From Oscillospiraceae bacterium (GTDB lineage: Bacteria > Bacillota > Clostridia > Oscillospirales > Oscillospiraceae): a stretch of DNA of 27,816 nt. Below the pieces are notes generated by a model, which did not search any database, was not told the origin of the DNA, and was given only the letters and a program-made list of their open reading frames with translations. The position numbers were made by a program, and so were the translations under genes. Shown here piece after piece: positions 6,249 through 27,640 of the stretch. Each line of letters begins with the position of its first letter. Within the stretch, counting starts at the first letter, position 1. Where the stretch lies: assembly GCA_017501805.1 (NCBI GenBank), contig JAFVWG010000234.1, positions 1 to 27,816 on the forward strand, given 5' to 3'.

Positions 6249-6252
6249 TGTC

Positions 6253-8526: not shown

Positions 8527-8557
8527 TATAACACCCCGTCTTCGCCCGCATTCGCGG

Positions 8558-8585
8558 TTGACAACAGTCAAAAACGTGCTAAAAT
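8558..8585 (+). promoter_or_regulatory. sigma-A promoter of alaS
   Basis: TTGACA (8558-8563), 16 nt, TAAAAT (8580-8585), extended TG. Confidence 0.75.
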
Positions 8586-8600
8586 GAGATAAAATGAAAA

Positions 8601-8818: not shown

Positions 8819-8838
8819 CGACAAAGGAGATCCAAACA

Positions 8839-11493
<2,655 letters not shown>

Positions 11494-11513
11494 TAACGGA
11501 AAGGAGAATCACC

Positions 11514-11852
11514 ATGTCCGATTGTCTGTTTTGTAAGATCGCCGCGGGCGAGATCCCCTCGAAGAAGGTCTACGAGGACGAAACCGTTTTCGCCTTCTAC
11601 GATATCGACCCGCAGGCGCCCACCCACTTCCTTGTGATTCCCAAGGCGCACATTGCCTCCTGCGGCGCGGTCACGGAGGAAAACTCCGCCGTCGTGGCGC
11701 ACTGCTTCGAGGTCATCTCCAAGGTGACCAAGGATCTCGGCATCACCGATTTCCGTGTGGTCTCCAACTGCGGCAAGCAGGCGCAGCAGAGCGTCTTCCA
11801 CCTGCACTTCCACGTACTTGCAGGCCGCGATATGACCTGGCCCCCGGGCTGA
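11514..11852 (+). CDS. Histidine triad (HIT/HinT) nucleotide-binding protein
   Basis: DCLFCKI N-terminus, PQAPTHFLVIPK, HLHFH triad; ATG at 11514 after AAAGGAG. Confidence 0.93.
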   Translation: MSDCLFCKIAAGEIPSKKVYEDETVFAFYDIDPQAPTHFLVIPKAHIASCGAVTEENSAVVAHCFEVISKVTKDLGITDFRVVSNCGKQAQQSVFHLHFHVLAGRDMTWPPG

Positions 11853-11867
11853 TCCCCAATCGCATAT

Positions 11868-11902
11868 AAAAAAGCACGTTACCTTTCGGTAACGTGCTTT
11901 TT
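11868..11902. terminator. Bidirectional intrinsic terminator between convergent HIT and pckA
   Basis: AAAAAA-GCACGTTACC-TTTC-GGTAACGTGC-TTTTT. Confidence 0.88.
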
Positions 11903-11945
11903 CTTGTTTTCCGAGAAATTCTCCGATCAGGCGATCAGATATTTC

Positions 11946-13553
11946 TTACTCGCACTTGGGGCCTGCGGCGACCAGAGCCTTGCCGGCTTCGTTTCCGGTA
12001 TACTTGTCAAAGTTCTTGACAAAGCGGGAAGCGAGATCCTTCGCCTTGGTATCCCACACAGACGCATCAGCGTAGGTGTCGCGCGGATCGAGGATGCCGC
12101 TGTCAACGCCGGGAAGAGCCGTGGGAACTTCGAGGTTGAAGTACGGGATGGTCTTGGTGTCGGCCTTCAGGATGGAGCCGTCGAGGATCGCATCGATGAT
12201 GCCGCGGGTGTCCTTGATGGAGATACGCTTGCCGGTGCCGTTCCAGCCGGTGTTGACGAGGTACGCCTTCGCGCCGCTCTTTTCCATCTTCTTGACCAGT
12301 TCCTCGGCATACTTGGTCGGATGCAGTTCCAGGAACGCCTGACCGAAGCAAGCGGAGAAGGTCGGGGTGGGCTCGGTGATGCCGCGCTCGGTACCTGCGA
12401 GCTTGGAGGTGAAACCGGACAGGAAGTAGTACTGAGCCTGCTCGGGCGAGAGGATCGAGACCGGAGGCAGAACGCCGAAAGCGTCAGCGGAGAGGAAGAT
12501 GACGTTCTTCGCATCGGGAGCGGCGGAAACCGGGCGAACGATCTTCTCGATGTGGTCGATCGGGTAGGAAACGCGGGTGTTCTCGGTCACGGAACCGTCG
12601 GCAAAGTCGCAGACGCCGTTCGCGTCAACCGTAACGTTCTCGAGCAGAGCGTTGCGCTTGATGGCAGCGTAGATATCGGGTTCGGACTCCTTGTCGAGGT
12701 TGATGACCTTCGCGTAGCAGCCGCCCTCGAAGTTGAAGACGCCCTTATCGTCCCAGCCATGCTCGTCGTCGCCGATCAGCAGGCGCTTCGGGTCGGTGGA
12801 GAGGGTGGTCTTGCCGGTGCCGGACAGGCCGAAGAACAGGGCGGTGTTTTCGCCGTTCATATCGGTGTTGGCGGAGCAGTGCATGGAAGCCATGCCGTTG
12901 AGCGGCAGGTAGTAGTTCATCATGGAGAACATACCCTTCTTCATTTCGCCGCCGTACCAGGTGTTGAGGATGACCTGCTCACGGGAGGTGATGTTGAAGA
13001 CGGAAGCAGTCTCGCTGTTCAGGCCGAGTTCCTTATAGTTCTCAACCTTTGCCTTGGAAGCGTTGTAGCAGATGAAGTCAGGCTCAAAGTTTTCCAGCTC
13101 TTCGGCGGTGGGGTTGATGAACATATTCTTGACGAAATGCGCCTGCCATGCCACTTCCATGATGAAGCGGATCGCCATTCTGGAGTCGGCGTTCGCGCCG
13201 CAGAACACGTCGACAACGTACAGCTTCTTGTTGGACAGCTGTTTGACAGCGAGATCCTTCAGGGCTGCCCAGGTCTCTTCGCTGCAGGGATGGTTGTCGT
13301 TCTTGAACTCGTCGGAGGTCCACCACACGGTGTCCTTGGAGTTGGCGTCCATAACGATGAACTTGTCTTTGGGGGAACGGCCGGTGTAGATGCCGGTCAT
13401 AACGTTAACGGCGCCGAGCTCGGTGACCTGGCCCTTTTCGTAGCCTTCCAGAGAAGCATCGGTTTCGGCAACAAACAGTTCCTCGTAAGAGGGGTTGCGA
13501 ATGATTTCCTTCACGCCGTTGATGCCATACTTGGTCAAATCAATGTTCTTCAT
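11946..13553 (-). CDS. pckA: Phosphoenolpyruvate carboxykinase (ATP)
   Basis: [58 protein letters not shown]. Start ATG at 13553 (AAAGGTG RBS). Confidence 0.97.
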
Positions 13554-13579
13554 AGTTTTCACCTTTCTTCATTTAAAAA

Positions 13580-14839
13580 TTAAAACAAAATAATCAAAAA
13601 CTGGGAAACTAACACAACTGCAATGAGTGCGACCGGGTATGTGGCAGCGTACGCAGCCGCTACATCCTCCGTACCCGCAACACCGATCAAAGTACCCAGA
13701 GCAGGGGTTGACGTCATACCCCCGGTGAGAGAACCGAGGTTGTTGAGAAGGCTCAGCTTCAAAACATATTTCGCAAACAGGAAGCCGACGATCATCGGAA
13801 CAACGGTCATCACAACGCCGTAAACGAAATACATCGGGTCAAAGTTGGCGATGAATTCCGCACCGCCGGGGATGCCCGCGCCGACAAGGAACAGCACCAG
13901 ACCCAGTTCGCGGAAGAGCTTCAGCGTGCTCTGCGCCGGCATAATGCTGACAGGTCCGATCTTGCCGAAATGTCCCAAAACAAGGCTCATCAGCAGGCAG
14001 CCGCCGGTCGCGGTCAGCGAGAAGCAGGTGCCGGAAAGTCCGTTTGCGGTCAGCGGGATCTTGATATTGCCGACCAGCACGCCCAGAATGGCAGCCAGCG
14101 CAAATCCGGCAACGCCCATATGGTCGATCTCGAAGAGCTTTTTGCTGCTCTTTTTCTCTTCCTTCTCGGACTTCACGATCAGTTTTGCACGCTCTTCATC
14201 CATATTGGCTTTCACAAGCTTCGGGATGAGCTGCACGAAAAGCACAACGCCCACAACACCGAAGATGTAGGAAATGCCGTGACCGACCGATACCAGCCCC
14301 TCATACGAGGGATCGACCGTAGCCTTTGCGGCGGAGAACGCGGGCGTCGAGGTCAGAGAGCCGGAAAGCAGACCGACGATCATCGCCACAAAGCCGTCCT
14401 GATCCGTGATCGTTGCGCCGTAGCCGAACACTTCGCCGGCATAGATGCAGGCAGCTGCGGAAAGTCCGCCCGCAAGAATGATGATCAGTCCGAGCAGAAC
14501 ATAGGACTTAAAATTCCTTTTGAAGTTGCCGAAGAATTTCGGACCTGCGATGTAACCGACAGAGGTAACAAACAAAACAAGTCCCAGACCTTCGATCAGT
14601 TTCATAGCCGTTTTGTAGTCGTACGGCTTTGCCGATGCGCTGAATACCAGTCCGTCGGGGGTCACGCTGAAGCACAGCGCGCCGACGAGCAGAGCGATGA
14701 TGAACACGCCCGCATCACCGAGCGAGACACCCTTCACGGTGATCCTGCCCAATGCATAGCCGAAAAGCAGAACGCCGAACACCACAAAAAGCAGCGTGTA
14801 GATGTCGTTAATGGAGATGACTCCGTCAAAAAACTTCAT
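13580..14839 (-). CDS. AspT/YidE/YbjL-family antiporter/exporter lacking TrkA-C domains; candidate succinate/dicarboxylate transporter
   Basis: Duplicated membrane module with GSLTSTPA and GGMTSTPALG motifs, FRELGLVLFL, YAATYP; only a short charged linker between the halves. The substrate is inferred from context. Confidence 0.8.
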   Translation of the reverse strand: MKFFDGVISINDIYTLLFVVFGVLLFGYALGRITVKGVSLGDAGVFIIALLVGALCFSVTPDGLVFSASAKPYDYKTAMKLIEGLGLVLFVTSVGYIAGPKFFGNFKRNFKSYVLLGLIIILAGGLSAAACIYAGEVFGYGATITDQDGFVAMIVGLLSGSLTSTPAFSAAKATVDPSYEGLVSVGHGISYIFGVVGVVLFVQLIPKLVKANMDEERAKLIVKSEKEEKKSSKKLFEIDHMGVAGFALAAILGVLVGNIKIPLTANGLSGTCFSLTATGGCLLMSLVLGHFGKIGPVSIMPAQSTLKLFRELGLVLFLVGAGIPGGAEFIANFDPMYFVYGVVMTVVPMIVGFLFAKYVLKLSLLNNLGSLTGGMTSTPALGTLIGVAGTEDVAAAYAATYPVALIAVVLVSQFLIILF

Positions 14840-14852
14840 TGCGCTTCCCCCC

Positions 14853-16472
14853 TTAGAAATCCTTCTGCTTGGTGTAGTTGGGGATCAGCTTGGGAGAGAC
14901 TTTATCGGTCTTGATGCCCGCATCGGCCATTTCCTTCTTGAAGCTTTCCACGTGGTCGAGATTCAGCTTGTCGCTTGCAGTCGTATTCTTGGCAACGGCG
15001 GCGGCATGCACGCCGGCATTGCGTCCGAAGACGATGATATCCAGCAGGGAGTTGCCCATCAGACGGTTTTCGCCGTGGATACCGCCGACGGCCTCACCGG
15101 CAACGAAGAGATTTTCAACATCGGACATACCGTTGTCGGCGATCTTGATGCCGCCGTTCTGATAGTGGAGCGTGGGATAGATCAGGATCGGCTGCTTGCG
15201 CATATCGATGCCGTATTTCAGATACATACGCATCATCGCGGGAATTCTCTTTTCGATCGTTCCATCGCCGTGGATCATATCGATCATCGGAGAGTCGAGC
15301 CAGACGCCCTGACCGCCGTTGAAGGTGTCCACGCCCTTGCCGCGGCGGCACTCTCTGATAACAGAGGAAGCGCAGACGTCACGCGTCTCGAGCGGATACA
15401 TAAAGGCTTCGCCGTCGGCATTGATGAGCTGTGCGCCGATGGAGCGCACCTTCTCGGTGACCAGCGCGCCGAAGATCTGCGAGGGATACGCCGCGCCCGT
15501 GGGGTGATACTGCAGGGTGTAGGCATACAGGAGCGGTGCGCCCGCGCGATATGCCATAACCAGTCCGTCCGCCGTAGCGCCGTAGTGGTTGGAGGTCGGG
15601 AAGCCCTGGTAGTGCATACGACCCGCACCGCCGGTGGCGATGATCACGGTTTTGGCGCGTGCCACGAGGATCTCTTTCGTCTCCATATTCATCAGGACCG
15701 CACCGGCAGCCTTGCCGTTTTCGTCCTTGATGATCTCGATCGCGGAAATGAAATCCACAACGGGGATCTGACGGTTCTGCACCTCATCGCGCAAAACACG
15801 CATAATTTCCGCACCGGAGTAGTCCTTGCAGGCGTGCATACGCTTTCTGGAAGTGCCGCCGCCGTGGGTGGTCACCATCGTGCCGTCGGCTTCCTTGTCG
15901 AACATAACGCCGAGGTCGTTGAGCCACTTGATGCAGACAGGCGCATCGTTTACGAGCTTGTAAACCAGCTCGGGGACATTCTTGAAGTGTCCGCCGCCCA
16001 TAACGTCAAGATAGTGCTGCGCGGGGCTGTCATTGGGCTTGTCGGCAGCCTGAATGCCGCCTTCCGCCATCATCGTGTTGGCATCGCCGTGGCGAAGCTT
16101 GGTGACGATCATAACATTCGCGCCGTTTTCGTGCGCCATAATGGCAGCTGCAGAGCCTGCGCCGCCGCCGCCGATCACGAGCACATCGACGTCGTAATCG
16201 AACTTGGTCAGGTCGATATCCTTCGGGTCGATACGGGGATTTGCCTGCAGGGTCTCAGCCAGCTCCAGCGGCACCTTTTCGCCCTTGTTCGGACCGATTT
16301 TCAGCTCGGCGAACTGGGACTTGATATGGTCGGGATGGTTCTCCAGCAGAACCTGATCCTTTTCCTCGGCAGTCATACGTCTGGGATGGTTGCCGGCAAG
16401 AACCTGCTTGAGGCGTTCTTCGCGGGTGGCCTCTACCTTTTTAATGGATTCGAGTTGTTCTTTTGTATACAT
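14853..16472 (-). CDS. Soluble fumarate reductase flavoprotein subunit (FrdA/SdhA/TfrA family)
   Basis: GGGGAG Rossmann motif, TMMAEGG, QYHPT, ETRD, PTLHY and NRLMGNSL match the His/Arg dicarboxylate-site motifs of FrdA. Confidence 0.85.
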   Translation of the reverse strand: MYTKEQLESIKKVEATREERLKQVLAGNHPRRMTAEEKDQVLLENHPDHIKSQFAELKIGPNKGEKVPLELAETLQANPRIDPKDIDLTKFDYDVDVLVIGGGGAGSAAAIMAHENGANVMIVTKLRHGDANTMMAEGGIQAADKPNDSPAQHYLDVMGGGHFKNVPELVYKLVNDAPVCIKWLNDLGVMFDKEADGTMVTTHGGGTSRKRMHACKDYSGAEIMRVLRDEVQNRQIPVVDFISAIEIIKDENGKAAGAVLMNMETKEILVARAKTVIIATGGAGRMHYQGFPTSNHYGATADGLVMAYRAGAPLLYAYTLQYHPTGAAYPSQIFGALVTEKVRSIGAQLINADGEAFMYPLETRDVCASSVIRECRRGKGVDTFNGGQGVWLDSPMIDMIHGDGTIEKRIPAMMRMYLKYGIDMRKQPILIYPTLHYQNGGIKIADNGMSDVENLFVAGEAVGGIHGENRLMGNSLLDIIVFGRNAGVHAAAVAKNTTASDKLNLDHVESFKKEMADAGIKTDKVSPKLIPNYTKQKDF

Positions 16473-16486
16473 AGCACCGCACCCCC

Positions 16487-17161
16487 TTATTTCTCAAAAT
16501 CACGGTTGTTATACATTTCCTTCAGCTCTTCCGCAGTCTTTTTCATAATATCCTGCAGATCGGCTTCGCAGCCGCCGTTCTCGATCTCGGCGACACGATC
16601 CAGAAGATGCCGGGTCTCGGGCGCGAGATACTTGCCGTTGATGCGTCTTGCCAGAAGGCCCACCTGCGGATGGGTAATGCCGGCGGGGCAGCGGGCGGAG
16701 CAAATGCCGCACATCACGCAGTCAAAGGACTCCTCGGCGCACTTTTCAAAGTCGCCTCTCTGCGCGTAGGCAATGTACTGCATAACATTCAGTTCCTGCG
16801 GGCAGGCCTTGGTGCAGGCGTTGCAGCCGATGCAGGCGTAAATCTCGGGATACAGCTGCATCATGATCTGCTCGGTGGGCTTCACGTTCTCGAGCTCATA
16901 GGGCTGCTTCACCAGCGGGAAGAACGGAAGCGTGGCAATATACATATTGTCCTCGACCTTGGTCTGGCATGCAAGGCAGGTCTTGAGCTCCTGCTGACCC
17001 TTGATCCGGTATATTGTAGCACACGCACCGCAGAATCCGCAACGGCAGCCGACACCGCGAACGAGCTGGTAACCGGCATATTCCATAGCATTCATGATCG
17101 TAAGGCTCTCGGGGACCTCATACTTTTTGCCGTAAAGGTAAATGTTCACCATTTTTTCCAT
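16487..17161 (-). CDS. Fumarate reductase Fe-S subunit (FrdB/TfrB N-terminal-like)
   Basis: [2Fe-2S] CRCGFCGAC...CLAC plus two CxxCxxCxxxCP motifs (CIGCNACTKACP, CVMCGICSARCP); adjacent to the flavoprotein. Confidence 0.82.
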   Translation of the reverse strand: MEKMVNIYLYGKKYEVPESLTIMNAMEYAGYQLVRGVGCRCGFCGACATIYRIKGQQELKTCLACQTKVEDNMYIATLPFFPLVKQPYELENVKPTEQIMMQLYPEIYACIGCNACTKACPQELNVMQYIAYAQRGDFEKCAEESFDCVMCGICSARCPAGITHPQVGLLARRINGKYLAPETRHLLDRVAEIENGGCEADLQDIMKKTAEELKEMYNNRDFEK

Positions 17162-17173
17162 ACTAACATCTCC

Positions 17174-18007
17174 TTAATACTCACTGGGCAGTTCGTCCAG
17201 TTCATCGCAGCGGAATACAGGACCGTCCTTGCAAACGTATTTGGAGCCCACGTTGCAGCGTCCGCATTTGCCCACGCCGCACTTCATACGAAGCTCCAGC
17301 GTCGTGTACACGTTGGTCTTGTCGAAGCCGATCGCGCACAGACCTTCCAGTGTGAACTTGATCATAATGGGAGGACCGCACAGGACTGCGACTTTATTGG
17401 TGTCGAAGCCGAGTTCCTTCACATAGTTGGGAACAAAGCCGACATGTCCGTCCCAGCCCTCCTGCGGGTTATCGATGGTCAGATGTACATTGACACCGCT
17501 ATCGGTGGACCATTCGCTTATGATCTCCTGATAATCCAGCAGATCGTCCTTGCTGCGGGAGCCGTATACGATATCGATCTTACCGTAACGGTCGCGGTAA
17601 TGGCGGCAGTAGTTGATGACCGAGCGAAGCGGGGCCAGACCGACGCCGCCGGCGATGAAGAGCAGGTCTTTTCCCGCGAACACATCGTCCACGGGGAAGG
17701 GATTGCCGTAAGGGCCGCGGATGGTGATCTGCTGACCGACCTCCGCCTGATGCAGCCATTCGGTCACGCAGCCGCATTTTTTAATGGAAAACTCCATAAA
17801 TTCCGTGTTCGTGGGCGACGAGGTGATGGAAAACATCGCTTCGCCGACGCCCGGAATGGACAGCATCGCGCACTGACCGGGCATATGGTCGAAGGCCTTT
17901 TTGCCGTCGGGCGTCACCACGCGGAACGTTTTGATGTCGGGCGTATCGATACGCACATCGGTAATGACGGCGATCTTCGGAATTAAAGTATCGTTCACGT
18001 TATTCAC
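17174..18007 (-). CDS. flxA: FlxA-like FAD/NAD(P)H-binding [2Fe-2S] subunit (AsrB/HydG family)
   Basis: PGQCAML, FSITS, RGPYGN, AGGVGLAP, CGPPIM, MKCGVGKCGRC...VCKDGP. GTG start at 18007 or 17998. Confidence 0.82.
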   Translation of the reverse strand: MNNVNDTLIPKIAVITDVRIDTPDIKTFRVVTPDGKKAFDHMPGQCAMLSIPGVGEAMFSITSSPTNTEFMEFSIKKCGCVTEWLHQAEVGQQITIRGPYGNPFPVDDVFAGKDLLFIAGGVGLAPLRSVINYCRHYRDRYGKIDIVYGSRSKDDLLDYQEIISEWSTDSGVNVHLTIDNPQEGWDGHVGFVPNYVKELGFDTNKVAVLCGPPIMIKFTLEGLCAIGFDKTNVYTTLELRMKCGVGKCGRCNVGSKYVCKDGPVFRCDELDELPSEY

Positions 18008-19028
18008 CTTTATTCCCTCCGATCTTTTTCATCACTTTCACGATATTCATCGAAATGGGGCATTTGGCAAGGCAGCGTCCGCAGCCCACACAGCTGAACA
18101 GTCCCTCATTGTTTTCGGGATAATACACCAGCTTGTGCATAAAACGCTGACGGAAGCGCTCCTTTTGGGTCAGGCGGTTATTGCCGTGCGCCATTTTCGT
18201 GAACTCGGAATACATGCAGGAGTCCCAGCAGCGGAAGCGGACAACGCCGTTTCCGGTGTTGAAGTCCTTGATGTCGTAGCACTGGCAGGTCGGGCACACG
18301 AAGGTGCAGGTGCCGCAGCCGAGGCAGGCGGAAGACAGCTCTTCCCACGCGGGATGGTCAAACAATTCGTTTGTTTTTCCGCCGCCGAAGCCGTCGGTCG
18401 TGAGGTCCCTCAGGGGAAGCTTTGCCATCACGGCGGCGATCTTTTCCTTCTGCTCCGCAACTGCCGAAGCATCGCCCGGCTCGGTCAGCGCCGAGAGGGT
18501 CTCGAGAAGCGCAGCACCCTTTTCGGTGTTGGCTTCGAAGAAGATCTCCGTTTCGGTCTTCCACGCGGAGATATCTCCCGCCGGAGCGGCGGGATCGATG
18601 CCGAAGGTCTTGCAGAAGCAGGTCTCGACAGGTCTTGTACAAGCAAGTGACACAATGACGCCGTGCTTTCTTCTGTTCGCGTAAAAGCTGTCCACAGGCT
18701 CCGTCAGGAACACGCGGTCAAGCACATCGAAGCTTCTGACGTCGCAGGCGCGAACGCCGAAAACCACGAAATCCTCCGCCTCGGAGCGGATGTCTTCCAC
18801 CTCGATGTTTTTTCCCTCGGTCTTGAACTTCATCAGATCCTCCGTCTGGGGGAAGAAGAAATCCTTGGGGCTGCGGACGGTGTTCAGAGTCTTGCTCCAA
18901 ACCGTGCCTTCGGACCATTTTTTATACGCTGCGCTGCCGTCGGTCTGGTCGACAGGGAGATACAGGGCAGCATTCTTTGCAATTTCAGCAAACAGTGCGT
19001 CGATTTTATCCAAAGAACATTTACGCAT
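18000..19028 (-). CDS. flxB: FlxB-like 4Fe-4S protein (AsrA/HydB family)
   Basis: FGVRACD, CLGCGTCTFVCPTCQC, RCWDSC, RFRQRFMHK, CVGCGRCLAKCP. Confidence 0.8.
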   Translation of the reverse strand: MRKCSLDKIDALFAEIAKNAALYLPVDQTDGSAAYKKWSEGTVWSKTLNTVRSPKDFFFPQTEDLMKFKTEGKNIEVEDIRSEAEDFVVFGVRACDVRSFDVLDRVFLTEPVDSFYANRRKHGVIVSLACTRPVETCFCKTFGIDPAAPAGDISAWKTETEIFFEANTEKGAALLETLSALTEPGDASAVAEQKEKIAAVMAKLPLRDLTTDGFGGGKTNELFDHPAWEELSSACLGCGTCTFVCPTCQCYDIKDFNTGNGVVRFRCWDSCMYSEFTKMAHGNNRLTQKERFRQRFMHKLVYYPENNEGLFSCVGCGRCLAKCPISMNIVKVMKKIGGNKGE

Positions 19029-20019
19029 TGCGATCCCCCCTATCCAAGACTTCGCCCGGCTCCGGATCTTCGGTGGTGTAGTTCACCAGCGGTGCGCGGG
19101 AATCGACCTCGGCGCCTGCCTGATATTCGCCGTAAAATTCGTTCATATCCTTGATGAATTTACGGTTCAGCAGATGCAGCGGGATGTTCTGCGGGCAGAC
19201 TCGCGAGCATTCGCCGCAGTCGGTGCAGCGACCGGCAACGTGGTACGCGCGGATGATGTGGAACAGTTTCTCCTCGAATTCGTTCGCGGGAGATTTGTTT
19301 TCCACGCCGGATTTCGGATTGTCGAACACGCACTTTTCGCAGGTGCAGGCGGGGCATGCATCGCGGCAGGCGTTGCAGCGGATGCAGCGGGAAAGCTCGT
19401 TCTGCCAGAAGGCGTATCGCTCATCTGCGGTCATCGCCTCGATGCGCTCCACCTCGTCGAAACGGTTCGAGTCCAGAACATCGCCGTCTTCGCCCATCAG
19501 TTCATCGTAGGCCACGTGCTTTTTGCTCTTGCAATTCACGCAGCGCTCGGCGAGAACCTCTTTGGTTTCCACCGCAACGGGGGCATCATCGTACAGGGTG
19601 GAAACAAGCAGCTTGTCGCCGTCCGCTTTGATCGAAGCAATGCCGTCACCGCTGACCGCCTTGACCTTGGCAATATCCACCATACCCTCGCAGGGAATGC
19701 CGACGGCATATACCTTCTCGCGGTCGAAGCGATGCTCGGTCAGGAGCTGATTGAAACTGTAGGTGTCGCAAGGCTTCAAAAACACGAGGATCTTCCCCTC
19801 TGCCTTTGCCGCTTTGGAGACAAGATATTTCGAGAAGTTCGCACCGCAGAAATCATGGAACACAAAGCCGTCATTCAGTTCCTCGGCGGACTCGAAAACA
19901 GTAGGCGTAACATCGTAGTCAAACTCACCCTTGCCCCAGCCCAGAACCAGACTGACAGTTCCGTTGGAAAGGAGTTCCGATGCTTTTGCGATCAGCTGCT
20001 CACGCGTTACTTTTTGCAT
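19021..20019 (-). CDS. flxC: FlxC-like 4Fe-4S protein
   Basis: LKPCD, CIRCNACRDACPACTCEKC, HVAGRCTDCGECSRVCP; lies between the mvhD-like and asrA-like genes as in flxDCBA. Confidence 0.78.
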   Translation of the reverse strand: MQKVTREQLIAKASELLSNGTVSLVLGWGKGEFDYDVTPTVFESAEELNDGFVFHDFCGANFSKYLVSKAAKAEGKILVFLKPCDTYSFNQLLTEHRFDREKVYAVGIPCEGMVDIAKVKAVSGDGIASIKADGDKLLVSTLYDDAPVAVETKEVLAERCVNCKSKKHVAYDELMGEDGDVLDSNRFDEVERIEAMTADERYAFWQNELSRCIRCNACRDACPACTCEKCVFDNPKSGVENKSPANEFEEKLFHIIRAYHVAGRCTDCGECSRVCPQNIPLHLLNRKFIKDMNEFYGEYQAGAEVDSRAPLVNYTTEDPEPGEVLDRGDRNA

Positions 20020-20441
20020 CTCAGATCCTCCAATCTCTTGTTTTCACCCAGTGCAGCCACCGTCTGAACGAAATCGTTCATCGTGGCGGCAAACTTTGCG
20101 CCTTCTGCGGCGGAGACCCATTCCACGCGGGTGCGTTCCTTCTCAATGCCGAGGAAGTCCAGCATGGAGAACAGCGCCGCCATGCGACGACGGGTGTAAT
20201 AGTTGCCCGACGTATAGTGGCAGTCGCCGGGATGGCAGCCGCAGAGGATCACGCCGTCGGCTCCGCGCTGGAACGCACGCAGAATAAACATGGGGTTCAC
20301 GCGGCAGGAGCACGGAACGCGAATAATTTTTACATCGGCAGGATAGGCCAGACGGTTGTTGCCCGCGAGGTCAGCACCTGCGTAAGAGCACCAGTTGCAG
20401 CAAAACGCAACGATGAGCGGCTTATATTCTTTTACTTGCAT
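20007..20441 (-). CDS. flxD: MvhD/FlxD [2Fe-2S] adaptor subunit
   Basis: AFCCNWCSYAGAD, RVPCSCRV, GADGV..CGCHPGDCHY, WVSAAEG. Confidence 0.92.
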   Translation of the reverse strand: MQVKEYKPLIVAFCCNWCSYAGADLAGNNRLAYPADVKIIRVPCSCRVNPMFILRAFQRGADGVILCGCHPGDCHYTSGNYYTRRRMAALFSMLDFLGIEKERTRVEWVSAAEGAKFAATMNDFVQTVAALGENKRLEDLRCKK

Positions 20442-22426
20442 ATTGCGTCAACCTCCGCCATAATTTGCAGGTTTGCAAAGCCCTTCAGATCCATCGCTCC
20501 CGACGGACACGCGACGGTGCAGGCGCCGCAGCCTTGACAAACCGCCGGATTGACCGACGCCACTCTTCTGAGCTTGGTCGTTCTGTCGGGCATGCGGAAT
20601 TCTTTTTCTTCGTACGTGATCGCGCCGTAGGGGCACACATTCGCGCAGGAAGAGCAGCCGTTGCACATCAGTTCGTTCGAGCTTGCAACGCAGGGGTTGC
20701 CCGTAAGCTTATCCTTTGCAAGCAGGCCGATCACCTTCGCAGCCGCCGCACTCGCCTGAGAAACCGTCTCGGGGATGTCCTTCGGTCCCTGGCAGGTGCC
20801 GGAGAGGAACACGCCTGCCGTGGGGCTTTCCACGGGGCGAAGCTTCGGGTGCGCTTCGGTGAAGAAGTCGTTGGTATCCATACTCGCGGTAAGCATCGTC
20901 GCAAGCGGACGAGCGGAGCGATCCGGTTCGATCGCCGCTGCCAGAACAACGAGGTCCGCGTCGATGTGCAGCTGCTTGTTTGCGAGCAGATCGGAGGCCT
21001 GCACCTTCAGTTTGTCGCCTTCGGGCGTCACCTTGCCGACCATACCCTTTATGTATTTCACGCCGTATTCTTCCACCGCACGGCGGTAGAACTCGTCAAA
21101 GTTCTTGCCGGGCGTTCTCACGTCGATGTAGAAGACATACACTTCCGTTTCGGGATATTTGTCCCGGACGAGCATCGCGTGCTTCGCCGTATACATGCAG
21201 CAGATCTTCGAGCAGTATTCCTTGCCCTTTTCGGCGCAGGCGTCACAGCGTGAACCGACGCACTGCACAAAGACGATCGTCTTGGGCGACTTGCCGTCGG
21301 ACGGACGCTCCAGATGACCGGCAGTCGGACCTGCGGCATTGGTAAGACGTTCAAATTCCAGAGACGTGATCACGTCTTTGGACTGGTTGTAGGCAAACTC
21401 GTCAAACTTGTCCATGCTGATGGGGTTAAAGCCGGTCGCCACAACGATCGCGCCGTATTTTTCCGCGATAAACTCATCTTTCTGGGTGTAGTCAATCGCA
21501 CCCACGGTGCAGAAGCGGGCGCAAAGACCGCACTTGCCGTTTTTCAGCATATTGCAGGCATTGGGGTCGATGGTAGCCACCTTCGGCACCGCCTGTGCAA
21601 AGGGAATGTAAACCGCCGTGCGATTGTCCATACCGAGGTTGAACTCGTTGGGGACTTTCTTCATCGGGCACATTTCAACGCAGGCGCCGCAGCCCGTGCA
21701 GATCTCTTCCTTGACATATCTTGCTTTCTTTTTGATCGTAACATCAAAGTTTCCGACGAAGCCCTTGATCTCCGAAACTTCACTGTAGGAGAAAATGCGG
21801 ATCTTGTCATTCTGCGCAACATCCACCATTTTGGGGGTCAGAATGCAGGCCGCGCAGTCGAGCGTCGGGAAGGTTTTATCCAGCTGCGCCATTTTGCCGC
21901 CGATGGTGGGCTTCTTTTCGACAATGTCGACCTCAAAGCCCGCGTCCGCGATGTCCAGAGCGGTCTGAATGCCGGCAATGCCGCCGCCGATCACCAGCGC
22001 GCGCTTGGTCACGGGCGTCTCACCGGGCGTGAGCGGAGCGTTCAGGTTCACCTTCGCGATCGCCGCCTTGCCGAGAATAATGGCCTTCTCGGTGCCGGTC
22101 ACCATATCCTTATGGACCCAGGAGCACTGCTCACGAATGTTGGCGATCTCGACCATATAGGGGTTGAGACCTGCCGCAGCCGCCGTCTTGCGGAAGGTGG
22201 CTTCGTGCATACGCGGCGAGCAGGAGCAAATCACGAGACCGGTAAGATTATGCTCCTTCACGGCATTGATGATCATTTCCTGACCTGCCTGAGAGCACAT
22301 ATATTGGTAATTGGCGGAAAAGACGACACCGGGTTCGTTTTTTAAGGCTTCGGATACTGCCTGCACATCGACCGTGCCTGCAATATTGCTGCCGCACCAA
22401 CATACAAAAACGCCAACTCTTTGCAT
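20432..22426 (-). CDS. hdrA: Heterodisulfide reductase subunit A (FAD, Fe-S)
   Basis: GVFVCWCGSNI, CSCSPRMHE, NIREQCSWVH, GGGIAG, KTFPTLDC, inserted and C-terminal ferredoxin motifs, QCVGSR, CSKICCMYTAK; 664 aa, uninterrupted. Confidence 0.95.
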   Translation of the reverse strand: MQRVGVFVCWCGSNIAGTVDVQAVSEALKNEPGVVFSANYQYMCSQAGQEMIINAVKEHNLTGLVICSCSPRMHEATFRKTAAAAGLNPYMVEIANIREQCSWVHKDMVTGTEKAIILGKAAIAKVNLNAPLTPGETPVTKRALVIGGGIAGIQTALDIADAGFEVDIVEKKPTIGGKMAQLDKTFPTLDCAACILTPKMVDVAQNDKIRIFSYSEVSEIKGFVGNFDVTIKKKARYVKEEICTGCGACVEMCPMKKVPNEFNLGMDNRTAVYIPFAQAVPKVATIDPNACNMLKNGKCGLCARFCTVGAIDYTQKDEFIAEKYGAIVVATGFNPISMDKFDEFAYNQSKDVITSLEFERLTNAAGPTAGHLERPSDGKSPKTIVFVQCVGSRCDACAEKGKEYCSKICCMYTAKHAMLVRDKYPETEVYVFYIDVRTPGKNFDEFYRRAVEEYGVKYIKGMVGKVTPEGDKLKVQASDLLANKQLHIDADLVVLAAAIEPDRSARPLATMLTASMDTNDFFTEAHPKLRPVESPTAGVFLSGTCQGPKDIPETVSQASAAAAKVIGLLAKDKLTGNPCVASSNELMCNGCSSCANVCPYGAITYEEKEFRMPDRTTKLRRVASVNPAVCQGCGACTVACPSGAMDLKGFANLQIMAEVDAICK

Positions 22427-22440
22427 TTGTCTTTTCCTCC

Positions 22441-22830
22441 TTACTTGCTGTATTTTCTGAATGCGCTGACCAGCAGCTGCTGCGGGATGTCCTCGTCCAG
22501 CAGGGCGGGCACATCGTCAGCCGTCATACGGTTCGCACCCTGTTTTCTGATCACGCTCAGGCGCACGGCCTCCACCAGCTTGGCGGGCTCCACGCTTCTG
22601 GGGCATCTGTCCACACAGGCGAAGCAGGACAGGCACTTGTAGAGCGATTCCGAGTTGAGCAGCGGCTCAATGTCACCCGTCTCCACCATGCTGACGAACT
22701 GATGAGGATGATACTCCATCTCGTCAAAGGCAGGGCAGGTGGCGGTGCACTTGCCGCATTTCATACATTTCCGGGGATTCACACCGCTCTGGCGGATCAG
22801 TTCCTCGCGAAGATACTTGTTGTTATGCAT
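22441..22830 (-). CDS. hdrC: Heterodisulfide reductase subunit C-like 2x[4Fe-4S] protein
   Basis: CMKCGKCTATCP and CLSCFACVDRCP; 129 aa. Confidence 0.88.
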   Translation of the reverse strand: MHNNKYLREELIRQSGVNPRKCMKCGKCTATCPAFDEMEYHPHQFVSMVETGDIEPLLNSESLYKCLSCFACVDRCPRSVEPAKLVEAVRLSVIRKQGANRMTADDVPALLDEDIPQQLLVSAFRKYSK

Positions 22831-23614
22831 TTGTATCCTCCTTTACGCCGAGCGCCTCTGCCAAAAGTTCGGTGATATACACCACGGGAATATCCGCTCC
22901 GTTTTTCACCAGATTGTACTTGCACAGCGGGCAAGCCGTGATCAGCATCTGTGCGCCCTGCGCTTTTGCATTGTTCACAACGGCATTGCTCTTTTCTTTT
23001 GCAAGTTCGGGGCTTTCCACGCTGACATAGCCGCCGCAGCACTCATTGCGCATCGCGTACACGACCGGTTCTGCGCCGAGCGCCTTGATAAAATCCTCCA
23101 TAATGGTGGGATTTTCGGGATCGTCCATCTGCATCACGCTGTTCGGTCTGAGCAGCAGGCAGCCGTAATACGCCGCGATCTTCTTCCCCGCAAGCGGGTT
23201 TACGATCTTTTCCTTCAGCGCGTCAAAGCCGACAAGATCGCGCAGCATCTCCAGATAATGATACACCTTCGTCTCGCCGAGATACGCATCCTCTTCGTCC
23301 ATATAGCGGCTGACCTTGTCGGAAAATTCCGCATCGGTCTGCATGGCGTGATTGGTCTGCTTGATAACATTGTGGCAAGCCGAGCAAACGGTCACGAGCG
23401 GCTGTTCCTTTCTGTGCGCATCCTTCAGCGCACGGACGGAGGAAAGTTTCGTTGCAATCTCATCTTTCGCGGTAGTAAACACACCGCCGCAGCATTGCCA
23501 GTTTTCAATTTCTTCGAGCGTGACTCCCAGCGCCTCCGCGGATTTGCGTGCATACAGATCCAGCTCCTTGGCCTTGTTCTTCAGCGTACAGCCCGGAAAA
23601 TATGCAACCTTCAT
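22823..23614 (-). CDS. hdrB: Heterodisulfide reductase subunit B (two CCG domains)
   Basis: YFPGC...WQCCGG...CSAC and YYGC...ECCGG...CPLC. Confidence 0.92.
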   Translation of the reverse strand: MKVAYFPGCTLKNKAKELDLYARKSAEALGVTLEEIENWQCCGGVFTTAKDEIATKLSSVRALKDAHRKEQPLVTVCSACHNVIKQTNHAMQTDAEFSDKVSRYMDEEDAYLGETKVYHYLEMLRDLVGFDALKEKIVNPLAGKKIAAYYGCLLLRPNSVMQMDDPENPTIMEDFIKALGAEPVVYAMRNECCGGYVSVESPELAKEKSNAVVNNAKAQGAQMLITACPLCKYNLVKNGADIPVVYITELLAEALGVKEDTNA

Positions 23615-23629
23615 GTTTATACCTCCGAA

Positions 23630-25006
23630 TCAAACCATTTCTTCGGGATGGAATACCTCGTCAAATTTTTCTGCCGTCAGGAAGCCGAGCTCCACGCAGG
23701 CTTCTTTCAGGGAAATGTCGTCCTTGAACGCCTTCTTCACGGTCTTGGCGGCGTTTTCGTATCCGATGTAGGGATTGAGTGCCGTAACGAGCATCAGGGA
23801 GTTGTGCAGATTGTGGTGCATCTTTTCTTTGTTCGCCTTGATTCCGACCGCGCAGTTCTTGTTGAAGGAGCGGATCGCTTCCGCCATCAGTCTCGCCGAC
23901 TGCAGGAAGTTGTAGATGCAGACCGGCATAAAGACGTTCAGTTCAAAGTTGCCCTGCGAAGCGGCAAGACCCACCGCAACATCGTTGCCCATAACCTGAA
24001 CCGCGACCATCGTGACCGCCTCGCACTGGGTGGGATTCACCTTGCCGGGCATAATGGAGGAGCCGGGCTCGTTTTCGGGAATAAAGATCTCGCCGAGACC
24101 GTCACGCGGACCGGAAGCCAGCCAGCGCACGTCGTTTGCGATCTTCATCATATCGGCAGCCAGCGCCTTGATCGCGCCGTGGGCAAACACAAGCTCATCC
24201 TTGGAGGTGAGTGCGTGGAATTTGTTGGAAGCGGTGACAAAGGGCTTTTTCGTGATGTTGCCCACTTCCGCGGCAACCGTCTCGGAAAAAGCGGGGGGCG
24301 CGTTGAGACCCGTGCCGACCGCCGTTCCGCCGAGTGCAAGCTCATACAGAGGCTCGATGGAGCGCTTGATCAGTTCAATGTCCTTTTCGAGGCTGGAGCG
24401 CCAGCCGCTGATCTCCTGGCTGAACTTGATGGGCGTGGCATCCTGCAGATGGGTACGTCCGCTCTTGACGATGCCTTCGTTTTCTTCCTCAAGTCTCTTG
24501 AAAGTCGCAACCAGCTCCTCGACGGCGGGGATCAGCTTATCTTCCAGAATGAGCACCGCCGCGATATGCATCGCCGTGGGGAAGGTGTCGTTGGAGGACT
24601 GGCTCATATTGACGTCATCGTTGGGATGCAGCAGCTTCTTGCCGAGGATCTCATTGCCTCTGTTGGCGATGACCTCGTTTGCGTTCATGTTGGACTGCGT
24701 GCCGGAGCCCGTCTGCCACACGACCAGCGGGAAGTTGTCGTTGAGTTTGCCCGCCATAATTTCATCGCAGGCGGCCTTGATCGCCTCCAGCTTTTCTGCG
24801 GTCATCTTCTCCGGACGCAGGGCGTTGTTGGTGATGGCGGCGGCCTTTTTCAGCACGCCGAACGCGTGAATGATCTCGCCGGGCATCGTCTCGATGCCCA
24901 CACCGATCTCGAAATTCTCGTGACTTCTCTGCGTCTGCGCAGCCCAAAGTTTATCGGCAGGCACCTTCACTTCACCCATAGAGTCGTGTTCGATACGATA
25001 GTCCAT
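23630..25006 (-). CDS. fumC: Class II fumarate hydratase
   Basis: DSMGEV, WQTGSGTQSNMNANEV, GRTHLQDA, GSSIMPGKVNPTQCEA. Confidence 0.96.
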   Translation of the reverse strand: MDYRIEHDSMGEVKVPADKLWAAQTQRSHENFEIGVGIETMPGEIIHAFGVLKKAAAITNNALRPEKMTAEKLEAIKAACDEIMAGKLNDNFPLVVWQTGSGTQSNMNANEVIANRGNEILGKKLLHPNDDVNMSQSSNDTFPTAMHIAAVLILEDKLIPAVEELVATFKRLEEENEGIVKSGRTHLQDATPIKFSQEISGWRSSLEKDIELIKRSIEPLYELALGGTAVGTGLNAPPAFSETVAAEVGNITKKPFVTASNKFHALTSKDELVFAHGAIKALAADMMKIANDVRWLASGPRDGLGEIFIPENEPGSSIMPGKVNPTQCEAVTMVAVQVMGNDVAVGLAASQGNFELNVFMPVCIYNFLQSARLMAEAIRSFNKNCAVGIKANKEKMHHNLHNSLMLVTALNPYIGYENAAKTVKKAFKDDISLKEACVELGFLTAEKFDEVFHPEEMV

Positions 25007-25034
25007 TTTCTTATACCTCTTTCCGAATTAAATT

Positions 25035-25976
25035 TTAGATATTCAAGGTTTTGATCAGATCTTTCAGGACCTTTGCACTTTTATGCAGCGCCGCAATTTC
25101 CTCCTCGTTCAGGGGGAGTATGACCTTGGCGTATGCGCCCTTTTTGCCCACAACGTTGAGCAGGCTCAGACAGACATCGTCAACGCCGTATTCGCCGTTC
25201 ACCAAAGTCGAAACGGTGAGCATCGTCTCAACGCCGCTGAGCAGACACTTGCAGATATGGCACACCGAGATCGAGACCGCGTAGAAGGTAGCGCCCTTGC
25301 GCTGAATGATCCGCGAGCCGGAGGTGCGCATATACTCTTCCACTTCGCTCTTAACGAAATCGGGATATTCCGTCTTGCTCTGGATCGCGTCCTTAAAGGC
25401 CTCGATCGGCACATTGGAAATGTTGGCAAGCGACCAGGGGACGAAGGAATTGTCGCCGTGTTCGCCGAGCACGTAGGCGTGCACGTTTTTCTGGTTCACG
25501 GTGTAGTATTCCGAGATGCGCGAGCGCAGTCTTGCCGTATCGAGGACCGTGCCCGAGCCGATGACGCGCTCCTTGGGCAGCCCCGTGTGCTTGAGGAACA
25601 CATAGGTCAGAACGTCAACGGGGTTGCTGACGATGATGTAAGTAGCATTGGGCGCGACGGGGACGATCTTGTCGGCAATGCTCTTGATGATCTCCACGTT
25701 GGCCTGTGCAAGATCGTGACGGGACTGACCGGGCTTTCTCGCGATGCCAGAAGTGATGACCACGATTTCCGAATTTCTGGCGTCGGCATACGAGCCGGCG
25801 TAAATATCCACAGGCGTGCAGAAGCAGGTGCCCTGTCTGATGTCCATTGCTTCGCCGAGTGACTTTTCCTGATTGATATCGATCATAACGATTTCGGAAG
25901 CAATTCCCATCGTAGTAAGCGTGTATGCGATCGTGGATCCGACGTTGCCCGATCCGATAACGGTGATTTTGCTCAT
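25035..25976 (-). CDS. mdh: LDH/MDH-family dehydrogenase, probably a malate dehydrogenase
   Basis: GSGNVG, SNPVD, GTVLDTAR, GEHGD. The specificity-loop residue is Arg (GIARKPGQSR, codon 25737-25739), not the Gln of LDHs. Lies next to fumC. Confidence 0.75.
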   Translation of the reverse strand: MSKITVIGSGNVGSTIAYTLTTMGIASEIVMIDINQEKSLGEAMDIRQGTCFCTPVDIYAGSYADARNSEIVVITSGIARKPGQSRHDLAQANVEIIKSIADKIVPVAPNATYIIVSNPVDVLTYVFLKHTGLPKERVIGSGTVLDTARLRSRISEYYTVNQKNVHAYVLGEHGDNSFVPWSLANISNVPIEAFKDAIQSKTEYPDFVKSEVEEYMRTSGSRIIQRKGATFYAVSISVCHICKCLLSGVETMLTVSTLVNGEYGVDDVCLSLLNVVGKKGAYAKVILPLNEEEIAALHKSAKVLKDLIKTLNI

Positions 25977-26054: not shown

Positions 26055-26594
26055 TCAGAAGTATGTGATGCTTATTTTTTTGCCCATCTTTTCAAGGCAG
26101 TCGGCAAGCTCTTCCGCAAGGTGCATCTTCACGTCAAAGCCGATCGGAAGATCCGGCGTTTCGTGGGCGGGGTTTACCGCTCTGCCGATGTAGAGGTGAA
26201 TATCGCTTGCCTCTCCGAAGAGTGCTCTGCTCAAAAGCGAAGCGCCGTCCTTTTGACATTGCCACGTTTCGCAAAGCCGTTTTTCTCCGAGGAGATCCTT
26301 CGCGTATTCCAGCACGCGCCCGACGGTGATCACACCTTCGGTGACGAGATCCGCACCCTCCAGCTCCGCCGTAGGCGGGATATCCTCGTCCTCATAATCA
26401 AGGCTTGCCGCCAGCGGTTTTTTCAAAAACGCTGCCGCGATGCCGGCGGTTGTGCCGCCGCAGATCATGTGCATCCCCTCCTCCGAGAAGAAGCGGGAAA
26501 GCATCCGGTCGGCATCGGCACGGTCGGACGGCGGACCGAAGAGCACATTCACGCGGACGGCGCCGCCGTCCGTCTTATCTCCGCAGTATTCCAT
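26055..26594 (-). CDS. Stand-alone protein resembling the C-terminal domain of HfsC/SpoIIE-type phosphatases of hydrogenase loci
   Basis: VLFGPP, ICGGTT, LEGADLVTEGVIT, YIGRAVNPAH motifs recalled from the C-terminal half of hydrogenase-associated SpoIIE proteins; no PP2C motifs; own AAGGAG RBS and ATG. Confidence 0.65.
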   Translation of the reverse strand: MEYCGDKTDGGAVRVNVLFGPPSDRADADRMLSRFFSEEGMHMICGGTTAGIAAAFLKKPLAASLDYEDEDIPPTAELEGADLVTEGVITVGRVLEYAKDLLGEKRLCETWQCQKDGASLLSRALFGEASDIHLYIGRAVNPAHETPDLPIGFDVKMHLAEELADCLEKMGKKISITYF

Positions 26595-26627: not shown

Positions 26628-26867
26628 TCAGAGCTTTGCCTTGATCTGCTTCTCGAAGAACTCGTCTGCCGAATCCGGCGTCACGGAAAAGAGCTCGTCA
26701 TTGATGGTGACGCAGACGCCCTCCTGACACTTTCCGATGCAGAACGTGCCCTTGAGTCTCACCTTATCTTCCAGCCCGTTTTCGCTGATGCGATTTTGCA
26801 GGCATTCCAGAACCAGACGGGAGCCTTTGATATGACAGTAGCTTCCGATACACACAGTAACGATCAT
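26628..26867 (-). CDS. Thioredoxin-like [2Fe-2S] ferredoxin (NuoE/HfsA-like)
   Basis: VCIGSYCHIKG and TFCIGKC give CxxxxC...CxxxC; ATG at 26867 after GGAGG. Confidence 0.85.
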   Translation of the reverse strand: MIVTVCIGSYCHIKGSRLVLECLQNRISENGLEDKVRLKGTFCIGKCQEGVCVTINDELFSVTPDSADEFFEKQIKAKL

Positions 26868-27519: not shown

Positions 27520-27640
27520 TCGCCATCGAGCCTCCCTTTACGCCGTAAAACGGCGAAAATACGGTCGTTTTTAATAAATATCGATATTATCGATAAAGCA
27601 CATATCGATATGTAAATAAAAAGACACCTATAGTACTACT

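Follow-up and report, generated by a model that had tools for sequence, protein, structure and literature searches.

The 27,816-nt stretch of Oscillospiraceae DNA studied here (from now on, the window) belongs, as contig C219, to a metagenome-assembled genome (MAG) of 1.78 Mb in 320 contigs, with a completeness of 85% and a contamination of 6.4%; its closest public relatives are gut MAGs of the Acutalibacteraceae (FrdA 96% identical). We centered on a series of 13 genes on the minus strand, between positions 11946 and 25976, in the order mdh-fumC-hdrB-hdrC-hdrA-flxD-flxC-flxB-flxA-frdB-frdA-AAE permease-pckA. A first-pass annotation, made from the sequence alone, had read them as a complete succinate pathway built around a soluble fumarate reductase fed by Flx and Hdr proteins. 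Gene identities were assigned by Pfam and NCBIfam profile searches, which bore out the series from mdh to pckA, and spacing was taken from the coordinates of the open reading frames (ORFs). The intergenic distances from mdh to pckA were 28, 15, -8, 14, -10, -13, -8, -8, 12, 14, 13, and 17 nt, the largest gap being 28 nt, so the claim that neighboring genes overlap or lie no more than about 30 nt apart was correct. A bidirectional intrinsic terminator at 11869-11902 (no strand assigned; 15-bp stem, 4-nt loop, flanking A and T runs) sits between pckA and a convergent HIT gene and was the sole strong one. The remaining terminator-like matches had stems of 5 to 9 bp and numbered 22, versus 18.8 ± 4.4 in shuffled sequence, and a scan of the window found no operon-strand terminator-like stem between any two cluster genes, in agreement with the single terminator after pckA described earlier. 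The same annotation had noted the absence of a membrane anchor, and indeed no cytochrome b or FrdCD-type anchor gene was found in the window by the profile searches.

The frdA gene (14853-16472, minus strand) codes for a 539-residue soluble fumarate reductase flavoprotein with an FAD_binding_2 domain at residues 96 to 476 (E value, 3e-67); the Pfam search of FrdA gave no match to Succ_DH_flav_C (PF02910). Among the NCBIfam models, TfrA ranked first (343 bits, below its cut-off of 718), followed by SdhA/FrdA (274 bits) and NadB (270 bits). The active-site residues H323 (QYHPTG), T339-E340, R364 (ETRDV), H436 (LHYQNGG), and R470 (NRLMGNS) were invariant in six orthologues. When 58 relatives, down to 30% identity, were aligned, H323, E340, R364, H436, and R470 were still invariant or at least 90% conserved, and T339 fell outside these columns. 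The histidine to which flavin adenine dinucleotide (FAD) is linked in SdhA of M. smegmatis (7d6v_A, GKAHTVMAEGG) aligns with Asn132 of FrdA (GDANTMMAEGG), and therefore the FAD of FrdA should be noncovalently bound. Noncovalent FAD in soluble fumarate reductases is consistent with a one-way reductase. The AlphaFold2 model of FrdA had a mean predicted local distance difference test (pLDDT) score of 95.5, including a 95-residue N-terminal extension, and its best fold match by Foldseek was E. coli FrdA (1kf6_A; template modeling [TM] score of 0.71 over about 448 columns). Given that the extension is also present in distant FrdA relatives with other partners (P0010, P0013, and P0019), it is a hallmark of the clade and not an Hdr-docking device. 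Judged by residues and fold, FrdA is a competent fumarate reductase; what stands of its earlier assignment is the set of catalytic residues, in a protein that has the N-terminal extension and is without both the covalent-FAD histidine and Succ_DH_flav_C. Some FrdA matches contained in-frame stop codons, in alignments reaching the last residues of the query, which probably represent read-through of the natural stop rather than selenocysteine.

Its partner, frdB (16487-17161, minus strand), encodes a 224-residue Fe-S subunit with Pfam Fer2_4 and dicluster domains. The [2Fe-2S] site (Fer2_4, not Fer2_3) is made up of C39, C44, C47, and C65 and is accompanied by two complete CxxCxxCxxxCP motifs; all 12 cluster cysteines were invariant even in relatives at 31 to 50% identity. 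The N terminus of FrdB matched positions 18 to 92 of the TfrB model, and no CCG domain was found in the protein by Pfam. Foldseek comparisons with FrdB/SdhB gave weak subdomain matches (E value of about 6e-4; TM score, 0.28 to 0.31), and others to RnfC and the NuoG N terminus. The reading of frdB-frdA as a soluble fumarate reductase pair was kept; with its Fer2_4 domain and two CxxCxxCxxxCP motifs, FrdB does not look like a classical SdhB/FrdB, and its kinship to SdhB is weak.

All seven FlxABCD-HdrABC subunit types are encoded contiguously at 17174-23614, on the same strand. HdrB (22823-23614) has two CCG domains, that is, two noncubane [4Fe-4S] sites; its best NCBIfam match was SdhE (type E/MFR; 152 bits), followed by HdrB (147 bits). 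All its CCG cysteines aligned with those of PDB entry 8rvv_B (E value, 1.2e-36), and its 10 cysteines were invariant in 58/58 orthologues. The 2x[4Fe-4S] subunit HdrC (22441-22830; TIGR03290, E value of 1.8e-16) had all 8 cysteines invariant in 59/59 orthologues. HdrA (20432-22426), with FAD and six [4Fe-4S] sites, scored 776 bits with NCBIfam HdrA2 and matched methanogen HdrA (5odc_A) over its full length (680 bits, residues 3 to 661 versus 5 to 648). Its cluster cysteines, including those of both ferredoxin-like domains, were invariant in 59 orthologues, and HdrA is presumed to be the bifurcating flavoprotein. FlxD (20007-20441; Pfam FlpD, E value of 6e-55) is an MvhD-like [2Fe-2S] connector that matches the C-terminal MvhD portion of the HdrA2 model. 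The Fe-S subunit FlxC (19021-20019; 4Fe-4S dicluster families) resembles the C-terminal part of FdhB, its best PDB matches being FdhB subunits of Fdh-Hdr complexes (8rvu_E, E value of 2e-21). FlxB (18000-19028; Fer4_22) is a further Fe-S subunit, like sulfhydrogenase beta or AsrA (NCBIfam ShyB/HydB/AsrA, 145 to 177 bits), and FlxA (17174-18007) is the NAD(P)H-binding FAD/[2Fe-2S] subunit through which electrons would enter (FAD_binding_6, NAD_binding_1, and DHODB_Fe-S_bind; NCBIfam HydG/AsrB-like, that is, sulfhydrogenase gamma, 189 to 228 bits). These features of FlxA to FlxC agree with the published description of FlxABCD. The TfrB model was covered piecewise by FrdB (positions 18 to 92), HdrC (133 to 219), and HdrB (262 to 487). 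Since HdrB in turn has SdhE as its best match, the direct wiring of CCG and SdhB-like modules has natural precedents.

The flanking genes of the series complete the path from phosphoenolpyruvate (PEP) to succinate. The product of mdh (25035-25976, minus strand; Ldh_1_N and Ldh_1_C) is an NAD-dependent malate dehydrogenase (MDH) of the lactate dehydrogenase (LDH)-like type. In NCBIfam it scored as an L-LDH (346 bits, cut-off of 339), with 282.5 bits for the MDH subfamily (cut-off of 283). Its assignment as a malate dehydrogenase held despite that score, by virtue of an Arg at the specificity position equivalent to Gln102 (motif GIARKPGQSR), a hallmark of LDH-like malate dehydrogenases; for the same reason, a true LDH was rejected. 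Automatic annotation would probably call this gene an LDH. The next gene, fumC (23630-25006, minus strand), encodes a class II fumarate hydratase (TIGR00979 fumC_II, 715 bits; cut-off of 665), and an aspartase was rejected (aspA, 452 bits). Downstream of frdA, the gene formerly labeled aspT (13580-14839, minus strand) specifies instead a short (419-residue) permease of the AAE family (AspT/YidE/YbjL), with two Pfam Asp-Al_Ex domains and an NCBIfam YidE_YbjL duplication domain above the cut-off, and it is more likely a succinate exporter, for which we consider it a candidate. The last gene, pckA (11946-13562, minus strand), encodes an ATP-dependent PEP carboxykinase (PEPCK_ATP, E value of 2e-202; TIGR00224, 814 bits). 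Taken together, these matches support the PEP-to-succinate assignment.

In order to see how far this arrangement is conserved, as the first-pass annotation had proposed, we scanned one genome per GTDB species, which yielded at least 589 loci, and compared the best 80 of them (71 to 96% identity); with five relatives' genomes, these make up 85 loci. The order hdrBCA-flxDCBA-frdBA was identical in all 85 as far as the contigs reach, a synteny far beyond chance. An assembly artefact was rejected, the same arrangement being present in 85 independent assemblies. Within the best 80 loci, frdB was counted in 78, flxA in 72, and hdrB in 53, and the genes missing from some of them are attributed to contig ends. 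The surroundings of this core varied: fumC lay directly upstream of hdrB in 44/80 loci, mdh was upstream of the operon in 39/80, and the AAE permease followed frdA in 61/80. In contrast, pckA adjoins the operon only in the window and in one other locus (L088), not even in the 96%-identical relatives. Hence, the conserved unit is the Hdr-Flx-Frd core, and the complete pathway in one operon, although present here as first described, is a peculiarity of this lineage because pckA is adjacent only in these two loci. FrdA orthologues at 68 to 74% identity were found in genomes of the same genus and of three other families of the order, all of them in mdh-(fumC)-hdrBCA-flxDCBA-frdBA clusters. On a wider scale, a full-length FrdA orthologue (E value of ≤1e-150) was present in 97 of 399 evenly sampled Clostridia species genomes and in 55 of 217 genera. 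The carriers include members of the Acutalibacteraceae, Oscillospiraceae, and Christensenellaceae, Lachnospiraceae-labeled MAGs, and many MAGs from ruminant, chicken, and human guts, as well as a cultured organism, Christensenella tenuis NSJ-35 (full operon, locus L085).

More diverged relatives of FrdBA occur with other partners. Three loci (L101 to L103; locus coordinates 9366-12891), on contigs of proteobacterial appearance that also carry cytochrome c, UbiA, and flagellar genes, contain a three-gene unit of frdB (212 residues), frdA (545 residues; 47% identical to FrdA of the window, whose N-terminal extension it shares), and a NuoF-like protein with Complex1_51K, SLBB, and NADH_4Fe-4S domains. 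This unit is a candidate for a simple soluble NADH:fumarate reductase, and we know of no description of it. Locus L106 (811-9771) encodes a ferredoxin and three subunits of a 2-oxoacid:ferredoxin oxidoreductase, followed by hdrA-mvhD-hdrC-hdrB-frdB-frdA, with hdr-frd proteins 36 to 56% identical to those of the window and no flxABC genes on the 10-kb contig. In this diverged cluster, from another lineage, the Hdr-Frd link is thus found again, and hdrB and frdB are neighbors. In L105 (5250-7433), from a Clostridia MAG, a 727-residue natural FrdB-FrdA fusion (P0007; 52 to 54% identical to FrdA) was preceded by neither hdr nor flx genes over 5 kb. Still other FrdBA relatives were stand-alone pairs.

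We also searched five genomes carrying the operon, that is, the source genome G000 (85% complete), its congener G004 (95%), G026 (97%), G028 (100%), and G036. Neither DsrC (PF04358) nor Succ_DH_flav_C (PF02910), the marker of classical Sdh, Frd, and NadB, was found in any of the five, even in the 100% complete one in the case of DsrC. A UbiA/MenA prenyltransferase was present in one of the five carriers versus 14/14 control genomes. All five had an [FeFe]-hydrogenase and pyruvate:ferredoxin oxidoreductase (PFOR), and three had Rnf. The carriers are therefore without the usual Flx-Hdr acceptor, without another fumarate reductase, and mostly without quinones, but with ferredoxin-dependent enzymes. 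There is good support for FrdBA being tied, physically or functionally, to Flx-Hdr: the synteny is invariant across the 85 loci, and the carriers lack DsrC, a classical Frd, and (in 4/5) UbiA/MenA.

Several known systems put these genes into perspective. The “succinate operon” of Pseudoclostridium (Hungateiclostridium) thermosuccinogenes (CDQ83_RS03365-03315) consists of fumarate hydratase, seven Flx-Hdr, two fumarate reductase, and one small hypothetical gene; in transcriptome sequencing (RNA-seq) it reached about 2400-12700 fragments per kilobase per million (FPKM) at 1% CO2 and was co-regulated about 4-fold, and high H2 abolishes succinate formation in this organism (PMC7282089). The coupling of fumarate to ferredoxin reduction through Flx-Hdr was hypothesized by Koendjbiharie and van Kranenburg in 2019 (preprint 10.20944/preprints201912.0288.v1), as cited in PMC7282089 (2020). 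The operon has the same order, fumC-hdrB-hdrC-hdrA-flxDCBA-frdB-frdA, on one strand, and the gene sizes nearly match: 1366, 784, 325, 5348 (five genes), 676, and 1603 bp, versus 1377, 792, 390, about 5250, 675, and 1620 bp in the window. It differs in that an 83-residue hypothetical protein follows frdA in place of the 419-residue permease and in that mdh and a GTP-type PEP carboxykinase lie outside the operon, whereas mdh and the ATP-type pckA are inside it in the window. P. thermosuccinogenes is, furthermore, a thermophile with Rnf and Ech.

The FlxABCD-HdrABC complex of Desulfovibrio vulgaris was proposed to bifurcate NADH electrons to ferredoxin and the DsrC disulfide (Ramos et al. 2015, as cited in PMC7282089 and PMC5861303). 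The seven subunit types and the proposed bifurcation are the same as in the window, but the gene order is inverted (hdrBCA-flxDCBA in the window), and FrdBA takes the place of the DsrC acceptor, which was found in 0/5 carriers. The thiol:fumarate reductase TfrAB of Methanothermobacter is likewise soluble and anchorless (Heim et al. 1998, as cited in PMC6315080). Together with Mvh-Hdr, it forms in methanogens a bifurcation-linked route to succinate. However, FrdA of the window lacks about 120 C-terminal residues, has the 95-residue N-terminal extension, and scores below the family cut-off of 718, FrdB is without the fused CCG domains of TfrB, and the donor would be NADH, not H2. CoM and CoB thiols are not expected in Clostridia. 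In tubeworm symbionts and Thioflavicoccus mobilis, korABCD and tfrAB are interspersed with flxABCD-hdrABC in reductive tricarboxylic acid (rTCA) cycle clusters, and one electron-bifurcating complex was proposed (Rubin-Blum et al. 2019, PMC6315080). The L106 cluster is of this kind. Those gammaproteobacterial clusters serve autotrophic CO2 fixation with a 2-oxoglutarate:ferredoxin oxidoreductase, while the setting of the window is fermentative, with mdh, fumC, pckA, and the exporter candidate. The quinol:fumarate reductases of E. coli and Wolinella (FrdABCD/FrdABC) share the flavoprotein fold, the catalytic residues, and a 2Fe-2S plus two further clusters, but the window enzyme is without the anchor, covalent FAD, and Succ_DH_flav_C, 4/5 carriers have no UbiA/MenA, and the third site of FrdB has four cysteines rather than a 3Fe-4S motif. 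Finally, clostridial Bcd-EtfAB works on a similar principle, in which the reduction of an enoate-type acceptor near 0 mV by NADH drives ferredoxin reduction with 2 NADH per substrate (PMC5861303), although the proteins are unrelated and the bifurcating flavin is in EtfB instead of the candidate HdrA FAD.

On this basis, we propose a cytoplasmic PEP-to-succinate branch that would comprise PckA, Mdh, FumC, soluble FrdBA, and an AAE-type exporter, and in which the anchorless FrdBA would receive its electrons from the seven-subunit FlxABCD-HdrABC, whose genes lie between fumC and frdB. NADH would enter at the flavin of FlxA, and electrons would pass through the Fe-S clusters of FlxB and FlxC and the [2Fe-2S] cluster of FlxD (MvhD) to the FAD of HdrA, where the pair would be split. 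The high-potential electron would travel through HdrC, the noncubane clusters of HdrB, and the clusters of FrdB to the FAD of FrdA and on to fumarate (+33 mV), and the low-potential one would leave HdrA for ferredoxin (Fd) by way of its ferredoxin-like domains. The net reaction would be 2 NADH + fumarate + Fd(ox) → 2 NAD+ + succinate + Fd(red). Reoxidation of the reduced ferredoxin by [FeFe]-hydrogenase, as we would expect in carriers that, like the source organism, have no Rnf, would let NADH electrons leave as H2, so that more carbon goes to acetate with a gain in ATP; in carriers with Rnf, the reduced ferredoxin may drive ion pumping instead. With standard potentials (E0') of +33 mV for fumarate and -320 mV for NADH (PMC5861303), the step from NADH to fumarate releases about 68 kJ/mol, and that from NADH to ferredoxin costs about +19 to +35 kJ/mol (computed from the values in PMC5861303), so that the proposed stoichiometry is thermodynamically sound.

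That the operon encodes an NADH-linked soluble fumarate reductase complex of some kind is, in our view, very likely. The best reading, which we hold to be probable with a good deal of room for doubt, is that of an NADH-driven, ferredoxin-reducing (that is, bifurcating) soluble fumarate reductase. Of the bifurcating succinate route first described, the PEP-to-succinate pathway and the lack of a quinone-linked anchor stand as found; complex formation, direct transfer from HdrB to FrdB, NADH specificity, and bifurcation are what we infer from sequence. Several points weigh against the bifurcating reading. The likeness of FrdB to SdhB is weak (TIGR00384, 33.6 bits), HdrB retains a complete disulfide-reducing site that is maybe unneeded in a pure electron relay, and the RNA evidence in the source organism consists of short metatranscriptome contigs (see below). 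Rnf was found in neither the source genome (G000, 85% complete) nor that of its congener (G004, 95%), and therefore ion-gradient coupling is not general. To our knowledge, there is no Flx-Hdr complex for which bifurcation has been demonstrated in vitro. Moreover, FrdBA relatives at 47% identity go with one NuoF-like subunit and others are stand-alone or fused, which means that FrdBA does not need Hdr and that a simple NADH:fumarate reductase is possible.

The latter would be a nonbifurcating NADH:fumarate oxidoreductase, in which Flx-Hdr acts as a long wire, no ferredoxin is reduced, and the energy is dissipated. Besides the pairing of FrdBA relatives with a NuoF-like subunit, it draws on the fact that bifurcation by Flx-Hdr is itself a proposal in the literature (PMC7282089). 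We consider it unlikely, since if one such subunit suffices, the retention of seven in hundreds of species, with invariant HdrA cluster ligands, is left unexplained, and since the abolition of succinate formation by high H2 in P. thermosuccinogenes fits ferredoxin coupling (PMC7282089). The complete set of 10 CCG cysteines in HdrB raises another explanation, a two-step thiol shuttle as in methanogens, in which Flx-Hdr would bifurcate to a disulfide at HdrB and the thiol would be reoxidized with fumarate by FrdBA and the same HdrB in a Tfr-like manner. TfrA being the closest curated family of FrdA and the FrdB N terminus matching TfrB also fit this scheme, but FrdB is without a CCG domain, no thiol carrier gene is conserved in the cluster, and DsrC was not found in 5/5 carriers; direct cluster-to-cluster transfer is simpler and is implied by the architectures of TfrB and SdhE, so that the shuttle appears decidedly improbable. 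Slimmer still is the chance that donor or substrate is a different one, either because HdrA would hand electrons from reduced ferredoxin (made by PFOR or Kor) on to fumarate, whether NADH takes part or not, or because FrdA would act on L-aspartate (NadB-like) or another enoate. The former recalls L106, where hdr-frd follows a 2-oxoacid:ferredoxin oxidoreductase with no flx on the contig, and the latter the catalytic residues shared with NadB (270 bits), of which no separate copy was found in the carriers. Nevertheless, the conserved neighbors are fumC and mdh, not nadA or nadC, the entry module FlxA is of the NAD(P)H type, and about 90 kJ per electron pair would be lost if ferredoxin were the donor to fumarate.

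Beyond the bifurcating complex itself, we put forward, tentatively and with a little less than even confidence, a more general picture. FrdBA may be a portable soluble cartridge that docks on the noncubane clusters of HdrB, so that HdrABC would bifurcate to fumarate with no thiol chemistry; the same cartridge would work with a NuoF-like subunit (nonbifurcating) and with Hdr beside Kor (rTCA), and would provide a major NADH/H2/succinate route in animal guts.

Upstream of mdh there are three more genes on the minus strand. The first, rex (26896-27519), encodes a redox-sensing (NADH/NAD+) repressor (NCBIfam Rex equivalog, 258 bits; cut-off of 130) with Pfam Put_DNA-bind_N and CoA_binding domains. 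It is followed by a gene for a 79-residue thioredoxin-like [2Fe-2S] ferredoxin similar to NuoE/HydC (26628-26867; Pfam 2Fe-2S_thioredx, E value of 5.7e-8) and by the ORF of a 179-residue orphan protein (26055-26594) with no family match in Pfam or NCBIfam. These neighbors are rarely shared: rex was within 10 kb of the operon in 7/80 related loci, the small ferredoxin gene was near it in 5/80, its adjacency not being conserved, and homologues of the orphan (51 to 57% identity) were near it solely in L064 and L088. The distance between the orphan and mdh is only 78 nt, with no promoter-like or terminator-like site between, and a promoter-like site is found upstream of rex at 27676-27649. For these reasons, rex may be the first gene of the transcription unit; the mdh-pckA series of the first-pass annotation holds, but the unit may begin further upstream than mdh. 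A search for the Rex operator (TTGTTAANNNNTTAACAA and TTGTGAANNNNTTCACAA, up to 3 mismatches) gave no match around the operon's 5' end, which leaves regulation by the adjacent rex unsupported. Between the promoter-like site and the start of rex, three copies of the palindrome TATCGATA occur at 27579-27610, embedded in a longer imperfect inverted repeat (27564-27625); they are operator-like but not a Rex box. At the other end of the window, the stretch from 1 to 2747 has a lower GC content (0.49 to 0.55 versus about 0.60) and contains ordinary genes, all on the minus strand: tRNA-Pro(GGG) (464-540), an AI-2E family transporter (599-1912), and a DUF218 protein (1971-2726).

Transcript evidence came from two animal-gut metatranscriptomes. 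Short contigs of low depth, identical or nearly identical to the window, covered parts of the permease gene (14318-14483), frdB (16529-16760), hdrA (20671-20847), hdrB (23250-23506), and the small ferredoxin gene. None of the 16 pieces listed, out of 1671, bridged two cluster genes. These contigs hint at expression but do not establish a single transcript. A very high depth (about 1000-2000; runs X19 and X20) was recorded over pckA (11946-13562); most of it derives from 90 to 95% similar pckA genes of other gut bacteria and not from the source organism.

With regard to novelty, the literature search agreed with the earlier statement that no biochemical characterization was known, as we found no purification, assay, or structure of a Flx-Hdr-Frd complex. 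Sequence searches of the PDB with FrdA, FrdB, FlxC, HdrA, and HdrB gave methanogen Hdr complexes and classical complex II and no Flx-Hdr-Frd entry. A 2024 preprint remarks briefly on an HdrA-Sdh/Frd association in Ruminococcus champanellensis, which it calls “unusual.” On the other hand, novelty is lower than had been assumed, given that the same operon and hypothesis were published for P. thermosuccinogenes and a related kor/tfrAB/flx-hdr cluster in PMC6315080. The idea is not new: to a kind that is already published, though biochemically uncharacterized, the window adds a case in which the pathway operon is unusually complete. What we add is its prevalence in about a quarter of the sampled Clostridia species, the invariance of the cofactor ligands, the finding that carriers lack DsrC and a classical Frd and, for the most part, quinone synthesis, and the FrdBA cartridge with other partners.

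If the bifurcating reading is true, this would be the first Hdr-type complex with a nonthiol acceptor. Quinone-free Clostridia would gain ATP by sending NADH electrons to H2 and making more acetate, about 3.3 versus 3 ATP per glucose by a simple balance, which is an estimate. Where Rnf is present, the outcome would be an ion gradient, a quinone-free fumarate “respiration” without a membrane-bound reductase. The enzyme would thus matter for how succinate and H2 flow in guts and rumens, as well as for the engineering of succinate producers.

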